Part shown: positions 4,460-57,666 of the stretch, in pieces | How positions within the stretch are numbered: position 1 is the stretch's first letter | How the letters are laid out: each line of letters opens with the position of its first letter | Assembly: GCA_017625695.1 (NCBI GenBank) | Contig: JAGAKI010000079.1 | Coordinates: forward strand, 72,299 to 136,298 | Origin: Clostridia bacterium | Lineage (GTDB): Bacteria > Bacillota > Clostridia > UMGS1840 | Length of the DNA stretch: 64,000 nt | Reading direction: 5' to 3' | Notes under the pieces: generated by a model | Told to the model about the DNA's origin: nothing | The model's database searches: none | The model's input: the letters and a program-made list of their open reading frames with translations, nothing else | Position numbers and translations under genes: made by a program

Positions 4460-4490
4460 TTTTTTCCCTCCTTTCTGTGAAAATATCATT

Positions 4491-4563
4491 GTAGGGACAG
4501 ATGCCCACATCTGTCCGCTGTTTTGGAATGGTAACACGGGACGATGAGGGCATCGTCCCCTAC
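4491..4563. repeat. REP-like palindromic hairpin, inverted dimer
   Basis: GTAGGGACAGATGCCCACATCTGTCCGC, then 18 nt, then CGGGACGATGAGGGCATCGTCCCCTAC. Confidence 0.85.
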
Positions 4564-5162
4564 AGTTTTATTTTTAAAAAGTTTTTCAGTAGCTTTAACC
4601 CTGTTTTTCCGCTTTTTTCCGGATGAAACTGGGTTAAAAACACATGTTCTCTCTGATAGGCACAGTCAAAGGGAATCCCGTATTCAGAAGTGGCAATCAC
4701 TTCTTCCCGGTTTTTGGCTTCTAAATAATAGCTATGCACAAAATAGAAATAGTCATCGGGTAAATCGCAAAACAAGGGACTTTCCTTATGGGTAATCCGA
4801 TTCCATCCAATCTGGGGTACTTTTTTGCAGAGTTCCACGGGGAACTTCTTAATGTTACCGGGGAAAATGCCAAGTCCGGGCAATTCGCCCTCTTCAGATG
4901 TTTCAAAACACATCTGAAGTCCCACACAGATGCCTAAAAAGGGAGTCTTTTGATCGATGACTTCATAAACGGTTTCAATTAAACCGGACTGTCTGATACT
5001 TCCCATGGCATCATCAAAGCTACCCACACCGGGTAAAATCACGTGGTCGGCAGAACGAATTATTTCTTTATCTGAGGTAATTTGTACCTCATTGGTAAAC
5101 TGTTTTAAGGCATTGGAAACCCCAAACAGATTTCCTGCGCCATAGTCAATAATTGCAATCAT
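4560..5162 (-). CDS. hisH: imidazole glycerol phosphate synthase, glutaminase subunit
   Basis: GATase-1 motifs GICVGLQ, YFVHSY and QFHPEKS. Start MIAIIDYG has a GAAGAGG RBS. Confidence 0.9.
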   Translation of the reverse strand: MIAIIDYGAGNLFGVSNALKQFTNEVQITSDKEIIRSADHVILPGVGSFDDAMGSIRQSGLIETVYEVIDQKTPFLGICVGLQMCFETSEEGELPGLGIFPGNIKKFPVELCKKVPQIGWNRITHKESPLFCDLPDDYFYFVHSYYLEAKNREEVIATSEYGIPFDCAYQREHVFLTQFHPEKSGKTGLKLLKNFLKIKL

Positions 5163-10069: not shown

Positions 10070-10164
10070 CCTATCTGCTCAAATATAGGGTTTTCCTCGT
10101 TTTTTGGTTTACATAATAATTAGAAAAATAATTTTTATTTTTTTTCAGTTTCCCTCTTGACATC

Positions 10165-10520
10165 TTTTAGTATTCGGGAAACTACGGATTGTTTCCTTTA
10201 CGTATTGGAACACGTGAGGATAGGACGGATCGTCTCTCTTACATATTGCAACACGCGAGGATAGGACGGATTGTTTTTTTAGAATTCGGGACACTATGGA
10301 ATATTTTTTTTAGAATTCGGGACACTATGGAATGTTTCTCTTACGTATTGGAACACATAAGAATAAAGGAATTTTTTTAGAATTCGGGAAACGACGGATT
10401 GTTTCCTTTACGTATGGGAACACGTAAGAATCAAGAATTCTTTCTCTTAGGTTACGCAACACGTGAGGATCACAAATTTCCTCCCTTAGGTTTGCAAAAC
10501 AGGTTTGTAGGGGCGTTGAT
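10165..10520. repeat. array of ~9 degenerate 31-41 bp tandem repeats
   Basis: Units such as TTACGTATTGGAACACGTGAGGATAGGACGGAT and TTAGAATTCGGGACACTATGGAAT alternate. No coding potential. Confidence 0.8.
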
Positions 10521-28873: not shown

Positions 28874-29153
28874 TTTTTCCGTAAATGAACTCGGAACGCT
28901 ATCGCTTGAAATGAACTTTGCCGCTCGGCGTATCCAATATACGCCTTCGGGTGTTACCAAAGCAAATGCTTTGGCAAAGTTTCTTCCATCCGAAGTCCAT
29001 TATACGAAAAAATAAACACAAATGAACTCGGAACGCTACCGCTTGAAATGAACTTTGCCCCTCGGCGTATCCAATATTTCTGAAACAAAGGCGGCAAATA
29101 ATAGAGTTTGAAAGACATCTCATAAACTACATCCGGGAAAGGAACTATCAGCT

Positions 29154-32315: not shown

Positions 32316-32331
32316 TTCGATAATTTTTATC

Positions 32332-32474
32332 TGTTCTTTTTCTTTGATGTCAAAGAAAAGAACCAAAAAGAAACTGCCGCCTGGTATTTCCGCAATCCCG
32401 AATTTCCGTCGTTTGGAAACGGTAGAGAATTGCGAAAATAAGGGCGGATTCTTGGGTTTCGTCGCTGGATAACG
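32332..32474 (+). repeat. ~145-bp interspersed element, copy E1
   Basis: TTCTTTGATGTCAAAGAA palindrome, then CCGCCTGGTATTTCCGCAAT...ATTGCGAAAATAAGGGCGG long hairpin, then GATAACG. Confidence 0.8.
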
Positions 32475-32530
32475 TTTTTTTGTGGGCGGTACCATCGTTT
32501 GTGTACACCCAAAACAACGGATAACCCCTC

Positions 32531-32557
32531 GTAGGGGACGATGCCCACATCGTCCCG
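32531..32557. repeat. REP-like palindromic hairpin (between E1 and E2)
   Basis: GTAGGGGACGATGCCCACATCGTCCCG. Confidence 0.85.
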
Positions 32558-32602
32558 CTGTGTGGTTACCCGGAACGTTGTTTGGAATTGATATTTTTTG
32601 TA

Positions 32603-32745
32603 TGTTCTTTTTCTTTGATGTCAAAGAAAAGAACCAAAAAGAAACCACCGCCTGGTATTTTTGCAACCCCGAACCTCCGTCTTCCTGATACGGTATTCCA
32701 TTGCGAAAATAAGGGCGGAAAGTTTGCTTTCGTCGTTTGATCAGG
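32603..32745 (+). repeat. ~145-bp interspersed element, copy E2
   Basis: Tandem with E1 at a period of about 271 bp. Confidence 0.8.
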
Positions 32746-36940: not shown

Positions 36941-37267
36941 GAGCGTGTCATCAAAATTTGGAACGAAAGGTTCCCGAGGGTGAATATTACGACCGCTTGA
37001 ATTTGTAAAACCCTTTCAAGCTAAGGCCAGACGGACAGCCGGGTCGAACGCCGAAACGCCGGATAAAAACATCCGGTTGGCAGGGAAAACCTGCCTTATT
37101 GATTGAGTTAGAAGCTCAAATTTTATAAGTTGGTTCCTTTACAACCATGTGCCAAACAGCACACATCGACTTGTGAAACGGTCAATAAGAGTACGCGTAT
37201 CAAACTCTGAAACCTATCCAAATTGTCAAGGGGTGTTTTGTCCCCTTTGGGAAAACGATTCTTACAA

Positions 37268-41530: not shown

Positions 41531-41555
41531 AACAGAGTCACTGTTGTGTGAAAGG

Positions 41556-41603
41556 AAAAAGACGAAATTCAAATTTTTTACTTTTGAATTTCGTCTTTTT
41601 TTT
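41556..41603. terminator. bidirectional terminator module (family copy 1)
   Basis: A5-GACGAAATTCAAA-10 nt-TTTGAATTTCGTC-T8. Serves potD (+) and Cys-rich gene A (-). Confidence 0.85.
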
Positions 41604-41853
41604 ATATTTCACTTGATTTTATTTGTTCTTGTATTTCTTCTATCTTTTCTAATTTTAAAGTGTAATTCTCATTGCGGGGACACTCAATATGCACACATTC
41701 GTTACAAGGTTTTTTCCGAAAATGCTCAATACAACAACCCAAATAGTTACATTCGTCACAACAACATTCGTTCCCGTTTTCTCCGTTTCCCGGGCAGTCT
41801 TTTCCGCCATTTCCCGGAATCAGTTCAATTCCTGTAGGTCCGTCAATAATCAT
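41602..41853 (-). CDS. small cysteine-rich protein, paralog A (83 aa, 10 Cys)
   Basis: MIIDGPTGIELIPGNGGKDCPGNGENGNECCCDECNYLGCCIEHFRKKPCNECVHIECPRNENY.... GGAGG RBS 7 nt upstream. Only synonymous differences from copy C. Confidence 0.85.
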   Translation of the reverse strand: MIIDGPTGIELIPGNGGKDCPGNGENGNECCCDECNYLGCCIEHFRKKPCNECVHIECPRNENYTLKLEKIEEIQEQIKSSEI

Positions 41854-41865
41854 AGTTTTTCCTCC

Positions 41866-41899
41866 AAAAATAAAAAAGTGCGCAGCCGAAGCTACGCAC
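41866..41899 (-). terminator. leader terminator immediately upstream of the RBS of paralog A
   Basis: Minus strand GTGCGTAGC-TTCG-GCTGCGCAC followed by TTTTTTATTTTT, then GGAGG. Confidence 0.7.
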
Positions 41900-42059
41900 G
41901 AAAAATGCATAACTCCTTTGCTTGCAACAAAAATTGTTTCACACGGTATAATAAACCAAAAGTATGCGAAAACAGAGCATGCATTTTTACCTTAGTAAAA
42001 TGCACACTTATGGCGTTATTATACCACCAGTATCAATATACAATTTTTGTTGCAAAGTT

Positions 42060-42088
42060 ATTGTACCATCTTTTTAGAAAAATGTCAA
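42060..42088 (-). promoter_or_regulatory. promoter of paralog A
   Basis: Minus strand TTGACA-17 nt-TACAAT with an extended-10 TGG. Confidence 0.7.
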
Positions 42089-42094
42089 TCTTTG

Positions 42095-42244
42095 TTCATT
42101 TTTTTCTTTGATAGCAAAGAAAAAACGAACCAAAAAAAGAAACTACCGCCTGGTATTTTCGCAATCCCGGACATTCGTCTTTTGAACTGTGTATTCGATT
42201 GCGAAAATAAGGGCGGATTTTTTTCGTTTCGTCTTTCGATAACG
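42095..42244 (+). repeat. ~145-bp interspersed element, copy E3
   Basis: Same conserved CCGCCTGGTATTTTCGCAAT...ATTGCGAAAATAAGGGCGG core. Confidence 0.8.
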
Positions 42245-42423
42245 AAAATGGGTTATCTGCAACCTGACAGAGAAAACTACTATGTAATTGTTTGCAAGCG
42301 AATGATAGAACAGCCGTGCGGCGACTGAGCACTCGTGTAAAAGGGGTAAGGGGTTCGTTAAGGGGGATAGGGGGAATATCGAAAATTCCCCCTGCTCCCT
42401 TGACATAAAAAAACGAAAAAGTA

Positions 42424-42452
42424 TTGCAAAATTAGAATATTTATGATAAGAT
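42424..42452 (+). promoter_or_regulatory. promoter of paralog B
   Basis: TTGCAA-17 nt-TAAGAT with an extended-10 TGA. Confidence 0.6.
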
Positions 42453-42643
42453 AAAAGTGCTAAACAAACAGAATACTGTTCTATGGGAAAATCAGCCACA
42501 CTTACAGTTGGATATGATTCCTTATTTTTGTACACTCTAATCGTATGAATTTTGCTAAAAAACGCAGATTCCAAGCGGTTAGAGTGCTGGGTTGTTCCCT
42601 CTCTATTCTGTTTGTTTAGCGACTACGGGAGTTTGCGTTTTTT

Positions 42644-42675
42644 GTGCGTCAACGACCGTTGGCGCATTTTTTATT
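42644..42675 (+). terminator. leader terminator immediately upstream of the RBS of paralog B
   Basis: GTGCGTCAAC-GACC-GTTGGCGCAT followed by TTTTTATTT, then GAAGGAG. Confidence 0.65.
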
Positions 42676-42691
42676 TGAAGGAGAGAAATCT

Positions 42692-42943
42692 ATGATTATT
42701 GACGGACCTACAGGAATTGAACTGATTCCGGGAAATGGCGGAAAAGACTGTCCGGGCAACGGAGAAAACGGCAACGAATGTTGTTGCGACGAATGTAACT
42801 ATTTGGGTTGTTGTATTGAGCATTTCCGGAAAAAACCTTGTAACGAATGTGTGCATATTGAGTGTCCCCGCAATGAAAATTACGGATTACGACTGGAACG
42901 AATCCGTGCATTGGAAGAACAAATCAAAAACGATACGATATAA
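42692..42943 (+). CDS. small cysteine-rich protein, paralog B (83 aa)
   Basis: The first 65 aa are identical to A and C with at least 7 synonymous changes. The C-terminal 18 aa diverge (GLRLERIRALEEQIKNDTI). Confidence 0.85.
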   Translation: MIIDGPTGIELIPGNGGKDCPGNGENGNECCCDECNYLGCCIEHFRKKPCNECVHIECPRNENYGLRLERIRALEEQIKNDTI

Positions 42944-42978
42944 AAAAGAGGAAATTCATCTGAATTTCCTCTTTTTTT
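42944..42978 (+). terminator. Rho-independent terminator of paralog B
   Basis: AGAGGAAATTCA/TGAATTTCCTCT followed by T6. Confidence 0.8.
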
Positions 42979-43119: not shown

Positions 43120-43146
43120 TTAGCACTCAGACGAATAGAGTGCTAA
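43120..43146. promoter_or_regulatory. CIRCE operator (HrcA binding site)
   Basis: TTAGCACTC-N9-GAGTGCTAA, a perfect consensus. Confidence 0.95.
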
Positions 43147-43213
43147 CAACACAAAAACCCTTACAAACAAAGGATTTTCCAGATAGAATGTTATGGAAAG
43201 GAGCGGTTACCGA

Positions 43214-48888: not shown

Positions 48889-48983
48889 CATGAAACCTGT
48901 CGTATCATTGGTTTTCCCCTGAAATCCTAATGGAGTTTTTTTCCCTCATTTTAGGGAAAGAGAGGCATTTTCTCTATCCAACG

Positions 48984-49029
48984 AAAAAGACGAAATTCAA
49001 ATTTTTTACTTTTGAATTTCGTCTTTTTT
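48984..49029. terminator. terminator module (family copy 2)
   Basis: GACGAAATTCAAA-9 nt-TTTGAATTTCGTC with flanking A and T tracts. Near-identical to 41556-41603. Confidence 0.8.
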
Positions 49030-49030
49030 G

Positions 49031-49282
49031 CTATATTTCACTTGATTTTATTTGCTCTTGTATTTCTTCTATCTTTTCTAATTTTAAAGTGTAATTCTCA
49101 TTGCGGGGACACTCAATATGCACACATTCGTTACAAGGTTTTTTTCGGAAATGCTCAATACAACACCCCAAATAGTTACATTCATCACAACAACATTCGT
49201 TCCCGTTTTCTCCGTTTCCCGGGCAGTCTTTTCCGCCATTCCCCGGAATCAGTTCAATTCCTGTAGGTCCGTCAATAATCAT
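49031..49282 (-). CDS. small cysteine-rich protein, paralog C (83 aa)
   Basis: The protein is identical to paralog A. Six synonymous nucleotide differences, and a TAG stop where A has TAA. Confidence 0.85.
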   Translation of the reverse strand: MIIDGPTGIELIPGNGGKDCPGNGENGNECCCDECNYLGCCIEHFRKKPCNECVHIECPRNENYTLKLEKIEEIQEQIKSSEI

Positions 49283-49295
49283 AGATATTTCCTCC

Positions 49296-49328
49296 AAAAA
49301 TAAAAAATGCGCAGCCGAAGCTACGCAC
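49296..49328 (-). terminator. leader terminator immediately upstream of the RBS of paralog C
   Basis: Minus strand GTGCGTAGC-TTCG-GCTGCGCAT followed by TTTTTTATTTTT, then GGAGG. Confidence 0.7.
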
Positions 49329-49490
49329 GAAAAATGCATAACTCCTTTGCTTGCGACAAAAATTTACATCTTAGGGCATGAAACTCCAAAAGTATGCAAA
49401 AACAGAGTATGCATTTTTACCAATAGTAAAAATACACACTTTCAGAGTAATTCATGCAGAGAATCAATATGAAATTTTTGTCGCAAAATT

Positions 49491-49519
49491 ATTGTACCAT
49501 AAATATTCTGATTTTGCAA
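49491..49519 (-). promoter_or_regulatory. promoter of paralog C
   Basis: Minus strand TTGCAA-17 nt-TACAAT with an extended-10 TGG. Confidence 0.65.
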
Positions 49520-49699
49520 TACTTTTTCGTTTTTTTATGTCAAGGGAGCAGGGGGAATTTTCGATATTCCCCCTATCCCCCTTAACGAACCCCTTACCCC
49601 TTTTACACGAGTGCTCAGTCAACCCACGGCTGTCCTATCCGACAATTTGGAAAACGAAAGAAAGATGTTCCACATTAGGCTTTTGGTAACCTATAATAT

Positions 49700-49851
49700 C
49701 GTTATCGAAAGACGAAACGAAAAAAATCCGCCCTTATTTTCGCAATTCTCTACCGTTATCAAACGACGGAGGTTCGGGATTGCGGAAATACCAGGCGGCA
49801 GTTTCTTTTTTTGGTTCGTTTTTTCTTTGCTGTCAAAGAAAAAAATGAACA
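49700..49851 (-). repeat. ~145-bp interspersed element, copy E4 (reverse orientation)
   Basis: The reverse complement matches E1 and E3. Confidence 0.8.
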
Positions 49852-49898
49852 TATAAAAAAATTTTAATTCCAAACAACGTTTGGTCACAACCACACAG

Positions 49899-49925
49899 CG
49901 GGACGATGTGGGCATCGTCCCCTAC
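49899..49925. repeat. REP-like palindromic hairpin (reverse orientation)
   Basis: CGGGACGATGTGGGCATCGTCCCCTAC. Confidence 0.85.
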
Positions 49926-50017
49926 GAGGGTTAATTCAACGTTTTGGGAGTACACAAACGTATGGTACCACCCATACAAAAACGTTATCAAAAGACGAAC
50001 AATATGATATCATACAA

Positions 50018-50044
50018 CGGGACGGTGTGGGCACCGTTCCCTAC
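50018..50044. repeat. REP-like palindromic hairpin (reverse orientation, variant)
   Basis: CGGGACGGTGTGGGCACCGTTCCCTAC. Confidence 0.8.
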
Positions 50045-50065
50045 AGGATTTGGTTTCCGTTGTCA

Positions 50066-50099
50066 CAAAAAAACAGCACCGATTTTGGTGCTGTTTTTT
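50066..50099. terminator. bidirectional terminator
   Basis: A8-CAGCACC-GATTTT-GGTGCTG-T6. Confidence 0.75.
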
Positions 50100-50120
50100 C
50101 ATCGATAAGTTTTTTTAAAA

Positions 50121-50528
50121 TTAGAATTCTTTTTTCAGTTCAACACCGTTTGCATCGGTAGAAATGGAACCGGTTAACAGTCTGATAAAGTCAATTAATG
50201 CCCAGATAGAACCGCCAACACCGGTACATACGGTCAATACGATTTTAATGATACCCCATTTGGTGTAGCCTAAGTAGAAATCGTGAATACCGATTCCGCC
50301 CAAGAAGAAAGCTAACAGAACAGCAGTCAGCTTGGATTTCTGTTCGCCGTTAGCTGCTACAGCAGCTTTTACAGCAGCACCGCAGCTGGTACAGATAGCA
50401 GCACCGGGATTAATGGGCTGTCCGCAATTTGCACAGAATTTTTCTCCGTTTCCTTTCGCAAAGCCGCAGCTCATACAAGCTACCGCATTTTCGTTCATTT
50501 CTGCGCCACAGTTTTTACAATACATCAT
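50121..50528 (-). CDS. double zinc-ribbon / TM2-domain membrane protein
   Basis: Two CxxC...CxxC ribbons (CKNCG..CMSCG, CANCG..CTSCG) plus a TM2-like region LLAFFLGGIGIHDFYLG. Confidence 0.75.
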   Translation of the reverse strand: MMYCKNCGAEMNENAVACMSCGFAKGNGEKFCANCGQPINPGAAICTSCGAAVKAAVAANGEQKSKLTAVLLAFFLGGIGIHDFYLGYTKWGIIKIVLTVCTGVGGSIWALIDFIRLLTGSISTDANGVELKKEF

Positions 50529-57464: not shown

Positions 57465-57610
57465 ACGGCTTGAAAAATGGCGTATAATCCGTAAACCTCA
57501 TCGCTCGGCGTACAGCGCTTATGCCGTGCACAGTACTACGCGTTCGGAAAGAGGAAACCGTTGGTTTTCTTTCGATGTTCCGATTCTGGATTTCTTGCAA
57601 CACTTGATCT

Positions 57611-57656
57611 AAAAAAAGACGAAATTCAAATTTTTACATTTGAATTTCGTCTTTTT
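57611..57656. terminator. bidirectional terminator module (family copy 3)
   Basis: A7-GACGAAATTCAAA-8 nt-TTTGAATTTCGTC-T5, between the convergent malic enzyme gene and cysK. Confidence 0.85.
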
Positions 57657-57666
57657 CATTGTACCA

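Follow-up and report, generated by a model that had tools for sequence, protein, structure and literature searches.

Mosaic cassettes for a small cysteine-rich protein in a clostridial genome: exchangeable blocks and a candidate attenuator leader

Introduction

Concerted evolution of dispersed paralogs by gene conversion is known from the tufA/tufB genes and from the ribosomal RNA (rRNA) operons. Small modular units at many intergenic sites, with hairpin-forming boundaries and an effect on the transcription of their neighbours, are known as integron gene cassettes and as promoter- or terminator-bearing miniature inverted-repeat transposable elements (MITEs), e.g. the Correia elements of Neisseria. 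Here we describe a family of small expression cassettes that is comparable to both. It was analysed in a stretch of 64,000 nucleotides (nt) from a Clostridia bacterium (assembly GCA_017625695.1, contig JAGAKI010000079.1, positions 72,299 to 136,298), which we call the window. The window has three paralogous, self-contained cassettes for the expression of an 83-aa Cys-rich protein, one of which lies in the 1.2-kb island at 48889–50120. The gene of this cassette is termed C; genes A and B are transcribed divergently in a second island at 41.5–43.1 kb. Each cassette consists, in this order, of a sigma-70 promoter, a leader of 200–235 nt, a Shine-Dalgarno sequence (SD), the 83-aa coding sequence (CDS) and a palindromic bidirectional terminator. 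A G-rich module, M, stands upstream of the promoter in B and C and is missing in A.

As in the concerted evolution of tufA/tufB and the rRNA operons, the copies within this genome are more alike than copies at orthologous positions in sister species, and the tracts of identity have sharp boundaries. Unlike in those systems, only some blocks have been homogenised here and the regulatory blocks were kept different or swapped; copy number and position of the cassettes vary, and one protein is found under several leaders. Integron cassettes and Correia elements are also small modular units in intergenic sites, but the cassettes described here carry their own promoter and leader and have neither attC nor integrase, and the terminal inverted repeats or target-site duplications of Correia-type MITEs were not found. 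The boundary hairpin, in contrast to both systems, is a functional bidirectional terminator.

For the leader, the closest known mechanism is the three-helix attenuator of Bacillota, as described for the Bacillus subtilis pyr leaders with PyrR and for the infC leader under control of L20 (PMC1865079). The likeness lies in the length of the leader (about 200 nt) and its place between a sigma-A-type promoter and the SD, in an intrinsic terminator opposed by an energetically matched, mutually exclusive antiterminator, and in a third, upstream segment able to sequester the antiterminator strand. Unlike known attenuators, the leader has no sequence or covariance-model match to Rfam families. Unlike in pyr and infC, the sequence of its long rod-like "sensor" is exchanged as a whole between paralogs, with the apex and the antiterminator strand covarying, and the leader also serves unrelated genes (M23 peptidase, leucine-rich repeat (LRR) surface proteins, HicB, Cu_amine_oxidN1 protein).

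The results suggest that three things are new here: the architecture of the leader, an uncharacterised protein family, and the idea that terminator modules are landing sites for cassettes. The locus offers a natural example of regulatory rewiring by block exchange among paralogs, in which the coding core stays identical and the leaders differ. The leader RNA family, absent from databases, would be a three-helix switch with a swappable sensor domain, and repeated terminator hairpins may serve as landing pads for small cassettes. The small Cys-rich family is unannotated and widespread in gut Clostridia; the source lineages are uncultured and from the ruminant gut, where gene regulation is almost unstudied.

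Results and Discussion

Block comparison of the three cassettes

Alignment of A with C (41552–42069 against 48980–49500) and of the upstream regions of B and C (42093–42478 against 49851–49465) confirmed the homologies; identities by block are listed in Table 1. The blocks did not agree in their relationships. The upstream blocks, module M and the dispersed extragenic repeat E (copies E3 and E4), group B with C. The leader hairpin, the platform at the 3' end of the leader, the CDS tail and the terminator module group A with C, and the CDS core (95–97%) unites all three.

Table 1. Pairwise nucleotide identity of the cassette blocks.
Block	A–C	B–C	A–B	Remark
E		89%		absent from A
M		96%		absent from A
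Promoter	90%	86%	75%	
Leader hairpin	83%			B unrelated to A and C
Platform	97%	81%	83%	
CDS nt 1–190	97%	95%	97%	
CDS tail	97%		62%	B–C not reliably alignable (38 gaps)
Terminator module	98%	89%	92%	

All three open reading frames (ORFs) encode 83 aa with 11 Cys. Genes A and C differ by 7 nucleotide substitutions, all of them synonymous, and their proteins are identical. Gene B diverges from both in the last 62 nt of the CDS. Between B and C the third codon positions differ at 9 of 63 sites in the core (14%) and at 10 of 20 in the tail (50%; p = 0.002). A and C in turn show two regimes, with 97–98% identity in platform, CDS and terminator against 83% in the leader hairpin (Fisher p = 1e-7).

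An earlier, sequence-only reading of the window had proposed that the three loci are mosaics of exchangeable blocks. The incongruent relationships bear this out, and pairwise comparison of the two islands, which it had recommended, recovered the homologies. It had put A and C at about 93% over some 500 bp, which is right for the homology and the overall identity but hides the two regimes. The type-2 leader it had assigned to B was found, with a long hairpin unrelated to A and C. A separate −35 and upstream region in A was found as well; the −35 box lies in the sequence abutting E3, with E and M absent, and the −10 box is the same as in C. A design of this kind was also seen at the related locus L097. 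The order given for the C island (terminator, gene C, type-1 leader, M, E4, two repetitive extragenic palindromic (REP) hairpins) held to within a few bases for all blocks. Smaller corrections concern module M, a real block that has two parts, the G-rich upstream module and the promoter; the E3/M/promoter order upstream of B, which does match that of C but with a spacer of ~52 nt and not 65–85; and E4, which exists but measures ~163 nt rather than ~145 bp.

Cassettes in related genomes

Four independent metagenome assemblies share this arrangement over 20 kb, at 99.6–100% identity, and relatives also carry at least three copies on long contigs. A tree was built from 22 copies of eight related genomes along with A, B and C. 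The latter three formed one clade, as did the three copies of one other genome, and six genomes shared three cross-species paralog groups. Relatives (loci numbered with L) carry copies beside the same neighbours, namely potD (L017, L027), EamA (L021) and hrcA (L028). Across nine genomes leader type and CDS group were incongruent, and group II genes carry three leader types.

A terminator of one sequence family (AAAGACGAAATTC...GAATTTCGTCTTT) is found at the 3' end of every cassette and stands alone once in the window (Table 2). At this solo site a close strain holds a cassette: its 1-kb contig (L009) contains E and M, a type-1 leader and gene, and the malic-enzyme flank (97% identity), and the join to that flank lies exactly at the module that is solo in the window. 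Leader and gene of L009 are 94% identical to C, which makes it a distinct, fourth copy. Three related species (L014, L016, L022) carry a cassette at the malic-enzyme site in the opposite orientation. In L021, direct repeats of ~90 nt, composed of the terminator (39/39 nt) and a REP (33/34 nt), flank the cassette on both sides. Such a structure would be expected of a homologous (Campbell-type) insertion or of a substrate for precise deletion.

Decayed and joined copies were found as well. L027 (3955–4204) is a pseudogene in which M is fused to codon 16, with promoter, leader and start codon deleted. At L015 (3501–3990) and L028 (3481–3990), promoter and hairpin are replaced by foreign DNA with a TnpV gene (PF14198, E = 1e-38 to 1e-44), whose junction with the leader falls exactly within the terminator loop. 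The two junctions belong to two species and two paralog groups, which suggests a mobile element that targets the leader terminator hairpin. Two short contigs of the same species as the window (L011, L013) are reciprocal A/C chimeras that switch between CDS nt 41 and 98; L011 combines an A-type leader with the C flank, and L013 a C-type leader end with the A flank.

Origin of the mosaic

We concluded, at a probability of roughly 0.65, that the mosaic arose by recombination or gene conversion between paralogs together with gain and loss of cassettes at terminator modules, and that no transposase was involved. Recombination or conversion is favoured because the blocks give incongruent relationships, because A, B and C form one clade although they stand beside genes that flank divergent paralog groups in relatives, and because leader type and CDS group are incongruent. 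The sequence-only reading had named recombination or gene conversion between cassettes as one possibility, and on these grounds it is the best explanation. Homologous recombination between the paralogs would be anchored at the promoter and transcription start, at the platform plus CDS core, and at the terminator. The core would have been homogenised by such exchange, and sensor hairpin, C-terminal tail and upstream region would have been swapped. At the terminator modules entire cassettes would be gained, lost or flipped. Gene A looks like a recent copy of a C-type unit that reaches from the −10 box to the terminator and was inserted between potD and E3.

Several points weigh against this interpretation. 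The recombination event was not observed directly. Synteny with the relatives is rearranged and positional orthology is approximate. The clade of A, B and C could reflect a recent duplication plus loss of older paralogs instead of conversion. The drop of identity between A and C lies between a constrained platform and a variable hairpin, and differential constraint could explain part of it. L011 and L013 are short contigs ending in repeats and could be assembly chimeras rather than real recombinants.

Alternatively the cassette, or the cassette with E and REP, could be a non-autonomous mobile element moved by a transposase encoded elsewhere, such as a REP-associated tyrosine transposase (RAYT), which would act on the GTAG-headed hairpins or the palindromic terminators. 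The cassettes do occupy various sites, stand in both orientations and are polymorphic for presence or absence, GTAG-headed REPs are abundant, and group 1 RAYTs have been reported in Clostridia (PMC5581495). We nevertheless consider this unlikely. Transposase and integrase genes were lacking within ~10 kb of the cassettes, the 64-kb window showed no RAYT gene, and a Y1 transposase was absent from the genes annotated around the cassettes in L001, L005 and L006. The repeats around the L021 cassette, terminator plus REP, would suit a mobile element, but at ~90 nt they are far longer than the duplications made by transposases, and neither terminal inverted repeats nor short target-site duplications were found at the boundaries of cassette or E. 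There are E and REP copies with no cassette, and there are cassettes that lack E and REP (L017, L021, as opposed to the window). The breakpoints among A, B and C lie at conserved functional junctions that differ between copy pairs, and not at fixed ends. As for a transposon or insertion sequence made of the whole cassette, the 83-aa gene is the sole real ORF in it. The other suggestion of the sequence-only reading, a single mobilisable unit, was thus not supported: E and REP are independent of the cassette, and transposase-type ends, short target duplications and a transposase within ~10 kb were all lacking. An integron cassette, i.e. a promoterless ORF with attC and IntI, was rejected as well, with a promoter present in each cassette and no integrase nearby.

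Old static duplications, in which differing constraint and independent insertion of repeats would create a mosaic look without exchange, are quite unlikely in our view. Fixation of the three loci in the four assemblies of the species would fit this explanation, and platform and CDS are clearly constrained. Against it, divergence at third codon positions rises within one gene from 14% (core) to 50% (tail), and the noncoding terminator and platform are at 97–98% between A and C while the adjoining hairpin is at 83%. E and M group B with C and everything downstream groups A with C, and the A/B/C clade stands against three cross-species paralog groups. Loci fixed at orthologous positions, with no variation in copy number or place, had been named beforehand as the sign of static duplication; instead the close strain has its fourth cassette (L009) and the relatives have cassettes at other sites. 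The comparison among strains also brought up the truncated copy and the two copies disrupted by a mobile element in related species.

A further explanation would take the long inverted repeats of the leaders as elements of the DNA and not as RNA structure, either a phase-variation inverton or a MITE in the 5' untranslated region. The closing helix of the leader, P1, corresponds to an inverted repeat of 14–20 bp that encloses 110–130 bp, and the interior is wholly different between the leader types. The promoter, however, lies outside the repeat, the interior of the rod is nearly palindromic and inversion would alter little, and no recombinase gene is nearby. A single orientation was seen in all four assemblies, and the changes in the helices P1 and P2 are compensatory, with an apex that covaries with the downstream antiterminator strand. 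This reading of P1 was rejected as very unlikely, on account of the one orientation and the RNA-type covariation. It is extremely improbable that metagenome assembly or binning created the three copies artificially, even if short contigs break or turn chimeric at repeats, because the arrangement was recovered in four independent assemblies, from four samples under two contig naming styles (scaffold_N, k141_N), with copies separated by specific substitutions and with relatives that have at least three copies on long contigs.

The leader RNA

In each cassette transcription starts at the 5' strand of P1, the long closing helix. An intrinsic terminator with a U-tract lies just 5' of the SD in all three leaders, and it was conserved in 29 of 29 leaders examined. 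The hairpin domain as a whole is highly stable, and fold z-scores of the complete leaders were −7.1 for type 1 (A, C) and −5.7 for type 2 (B). When the nascent prefix was folded, a conserved GGAG-containing strand paired with the 5' strand and loop of the terminator, forming an antiterminator helix (GGAGUUAUGCAU : GUGCGUAGCUUC, −14.8 kcal/mol). The energies of antiterminator and terminator are balanced: in A and C they are −14.8 and −14.7 to −16.8 kcal/mol, respectively, and in B −12.8 and −14.4 kcal/mol.

Covariation was followed in an alignment of 11 type-1 leaders from six sources. Here 93–95% of the cells were paired (93.9% for the antiterminator helix), and pairs changed on both sides amounted to 6 of 11 in P1, 3 of 9 in the terminator and 2 of 12 in the antiterminator. 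For the percentage paired, the cells changed on both sides and the covariation score, the observed value was reached by none of 500 shuffles; in the antiterminator and anti-antiterminator structures, 1–11 of 500 attained the observed numbers of covarying pairs and extra pair types. In slid controls pairing dropped to 31–58%. The differences between the leader hairpins of A and C (83% identity) include compensatory changes in P1 and P2.

A third element was found in the apex of the hairpin. Over 9–11 nt its 3' arm or loop (AAAAAUGCAU in type-1 leaders, AAAAAACGCA in type-2 leaders) is complementary to the inner portion of the antiterminator strand. The complementarity is present in 29 of 29 leaders, at constant distance and across at least five sequence variants; in B the apical loop AAAAAACGCA matches the pre-terminator segment UGCGUUUUUU. 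Against a role of this segment stand the lack of a double compensatory change within type 1, where the helix is conserved rather than covarying, and the modest significance of each single apex match (p ~0.01–0.1 against shuffles). The support for an anti-antiterminator therefore comes from the comparison between leader types.

We infer from these pairings that the leaders are transcription attenuators of the terminator/antiterminator type. The leader would open with a long hairpin at the transcription start, which varies among cassettes, and end in the conserved platform, where the GGAG strand would pair with the terminator to form the antiterminator; the apex segment could then serve as anti-antiterminator. 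In type 1 the apex segment is locked in helix P3 (−12 to −16 kcal/mol); in type 2 it is part of a loop, and its pairing with the platform has an energy of −14.6 kcal/mol. The two leader types may thus differ in default state or input for copies of the same protein.

Type-1 leaders were also found in front of other genes, encoding a secreted Cu_amine_oxidN1 protein (L023–L025, L032), a HicB-like protein (L065), an M23 peptidase, two BspA-type LRR proteins and a 55-aa ORF. The type-1 leader is thus a portable module that serves unrelated genes elsewhere. The sequence-only reading had spoken of plain leaders and had missed both this use and the switch.

Rfam 15, which includes riboswitches and T-boxes, gave no family for the leader when the window, both islands and eight related loci were scanned with gathering and with E-value cut-offs. 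The best leader scores were 13–22 bits against thresholds of 45–141, and the eight related loci yielded nothing at E ≤ 0.01 apart from an unrelated glycine riboswitch. The latter lies at L030 7735–7844 (48 bits) and has no relation to the cassettes. A leader peptide was also considered, as A and C have an in-frame ATG after GGAG, and was rejected since frame and spacing are not conserved in type 2 or in other species.

A more far-reaching scheme combines both aspects of the cassettes, and as a whole we regard it as doubtful. The attenuator would be a portable device with interchangeable sensor rods, and the palindromic terminators would double as recombination sites that need no transposase. 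The apex of each rod would fit the platform, and the rod types could differ in the signal that they sense, be it a trans-acting RNA, a protein or a physical cue. The same protein, or unrelated secreted and surface proteins, could then be rewired by the swap of one block. The self-complementary terminators would act as direct and inverted repeats, at which cassettes could excise, integrate or flip by Campbell-type homologous exchange.

Module M, element E and REP repeats

Module M was found only upstream of cassette promoters, in the window and in L023–L025, L027 and L030. It contains a perfect 8-bp inverted repeat, GGGGGAAT-N7-ATTCCCCC, at 42376–42398 (B) and 49545–49567 (C), with its centre ~80 nt upstream of the transcription start, which could be a binding site for a transcription factor. 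A G-quadruplex might form from the four G-runs beside this repeat, but the runs are not conserved in L023.

Element E spans ~160 nt and is built of a short hairpin, an A-rich linker and a long hairpin, with T-runs on both sides. The hairpins flanked by A-runs and T-runs suggest that it might act as an insulating bidirectional terminator. E4 is 90% identical to the 32.3-kb copy and 89% to E3, and the composite of E4, linker and first REP at 49722–49999 duplicates 32365–32567. In relatives E stands in either orientation upstream of cassettes, between M and promoter, or in tandem duplication with M. The repeats exceed chance by far, with nhmmer E-values of 1e-35 to 1e-50. At L025 (3250–3769) a 318-bp unit of E, spacer and M is duplicated in tandem, and at L030 (3241–3698) two E copies lie 317 bp apart, the second one inserted between M and promoter. 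When E was examined as a MITE, dispersal in multiple copies was found, but neither the four copies of the window nor those of L025 and L030 showed terminal inverted repeats or duplicated flanks.

The REP pattern occurs in 9 copies (≤3 mismatches) in 64 kb against 0 expected, with more diverged copies besides. The unit of ~26 nt is an imperfect palindrome with a GTAG head, strictly extragenic, and forms inverted doublets at 2470–2551 and 4488–4569. The GTAG head is reportedly a feature of REP sequences, going by the work of Nunvar in 2010 and Ton-Hoang in 2012. The copies thus resemble the REP/REPIN class, as GTAG-headed extragenic palindromes in many copies, some in inverted doublets. Unlike in REP/REPIN-RAYT systems, the REPs here are bystanders to the cassette and not its ends, and the host is an uncultured clostridial lineage. 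E and REP are genome-wide extragenic repeats that are independent of the cassette, because E copies are present at 32.3 and 32.6 kb, because E occurs in both orientations relative to cassettes, and because E4 is as close to the 32.3-kb copy as to E3.

Two other repeats were seen. A tandem array of diverged 41- and 67-nt units (GGAAACNACGGATTGTTTCCTTTACGTATTGGAACACGTGA...) at 10160–10500 lies in an intergenic gap of 630 bp, behind a promoter-like TTGACA site, and has a REP at its end. A second extragenic family (…TAATCCGTAAACCTCATCGCTCGGCGTAC…), which differs from the GTAG REP, is often found immediately upstream of terminator modules (57470–57530 and 28883–29077 in the window; L014 3430–3520, L017 2150–2240, L021 3540–3640).

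The protein family

In an alignment of 23 sequences nine Cys are invariant, including a CDEC motif, and so is the N-terminal LIPGN..G..CPGN.E; in an alignment of 96 sequences the remaining Cys and a second CxxC are at least 90% conserved. Among 138 word-sharing candidates scored from a 90%-clustered protein database, 135 were family matches. Species-representative genomes contain at least 491 confirmed loci, nearly all in metagenome-assembled genomes of Clostridia or Oscillospirales from animal guts. The family forms 626 clusters at 50% identity. An exhaustive profile search gave no domain fusions, every member being a stand-alone protein of 50–120 aa.

Pfam and NCBIfam gave no protein match at E ≤ 10, and PHROG and PADLOC none at E ≤ 1. 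A profile search of the PDB returned nothing convincing (best E = 0.07), plasmids and phages gave no matches by tblastn, and a scan of 2.9 million viral contigs gave 1 partial match. A literature text search on the protein motifs found nothing relevant. The AlphaFold2 model from the 96-sequence alignment had a mean confidence (pLDDT) of 64 overall, with only the C-terminal helix confident, and this low confidence weighs against reading a function from it. Since there was neither a family or profile match nor a confident model, it is the Cys pattern that points to the protein being probably metal-binding.

Distant family members lack the leader. They adjoin a divergently transcribed helix-turn-helix (HTH) gene of the Cro/C1 type, with a perfect palindrome over the promoter. 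Because the leader is absent and HTH gene and promoter palindrome are present, these members therefore represent a different regulatory solution for the same protein family. Such leaderless loci are L036, L048, L049, L057, L071, L081, L088, L090, L092 and L093, with a divergent Cro/C1 or HTH_3 regulator and a promoter palindrome (e.g. ATAGACTAATACATTATATAATGTATTAGTCTAT) in the ~300 nt upstream of the gene.

Positions of features and neighbouring sites

The coordinates of the two islands and of the related elements in the window are given in Table 2.

Table 2. Features of the cassettes and of related elements in the window.
Feature	Position	Strand	Remark
Terminator module common to PotD (+) and gene A (−)	41556–41600	both	
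Gene A	41602–41853	−	protein identical to that of C
Type-1 leader of A	41854–42054	−	terminator 41878–41899
Promoter of A	42060–42088	−	TTGACA-17 nt-TG-TACAAT
E3	42082–42244	+	between the divergent A and B promoters
Module M of B	42297–42409	+	
Promoter of B	42424–42452	+	TTGCAA-17 nt-TAAGAT, putative, read from sequence
Type-2 leader of B	42457–42691	+	terminator 42644–42667; different long hairpin, same platform
Gene B	42692–42943	+	residues 1–64 as in A and C; last 19 residues diverged
Terminator module variant, 3' end of gene B	42942–42977	both	compensated stem change GAGGAAATTC / GAATTTCCTC
EamA gene	ends 48888		borders the C island
Terminator module common to EamA (+) and gene C (−)	48984–49028	both	palindromic, bidirectional, AAAAAGACGAAATTC-loop-GAATTTCGTCTTTTT; outer limit of A/C homology
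Gene C	49031–49282	−	83-aa Cys-rich protein
Type-1 leader of C	49283–49485	−	P1 pairs 49472–49486 with 49351–49365; apical hairpin P3 49406–49440; antiterminator 5' strand 49334–49345; terminator 49307–49328, then U-tract and SD
Promoter of C, sigma-70	49491–49519	−	TTGCAA-17 nt-TG-extended TACAAT (TGnTACAAT)
Module M of C	49534–49646	−	G-rich
E4-to-M spacer	49647–49699		~52 nt
E4	49700–49862	−	copy of dispersed extragenic repeat
Two REP hairpins	49891–50056	−	cores 49900–49925 and 50019–50044; each GTAG plus palindrome GGGACGATG..CATCGTCCC
TM2 terminator	50067–50099		
TM2 gene	50121–50528	−	borders the C island on the other side
Further E copies	32320–32474, 32591–32745		between thiI and U32 peptidase gene
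Solo terminator module	57611–57661		between malic-enzyme and PALP genes

Two sites in the neighbourhood of the A and B island were noted in addition. An inverted repeat of the CIRCE type (TTAGCACTC-N9-GAGTGCTAA) lies at 43122–43148, behind the hrcA promoter and directly 3' of the gene B terminator. An Rfam match to the ldcC RNA / SpF59 (63 bits; gathering score 37.2) is located at 36990–37054, upstream of the operon for the spermidine/putrescine (pot) ABC transporter.

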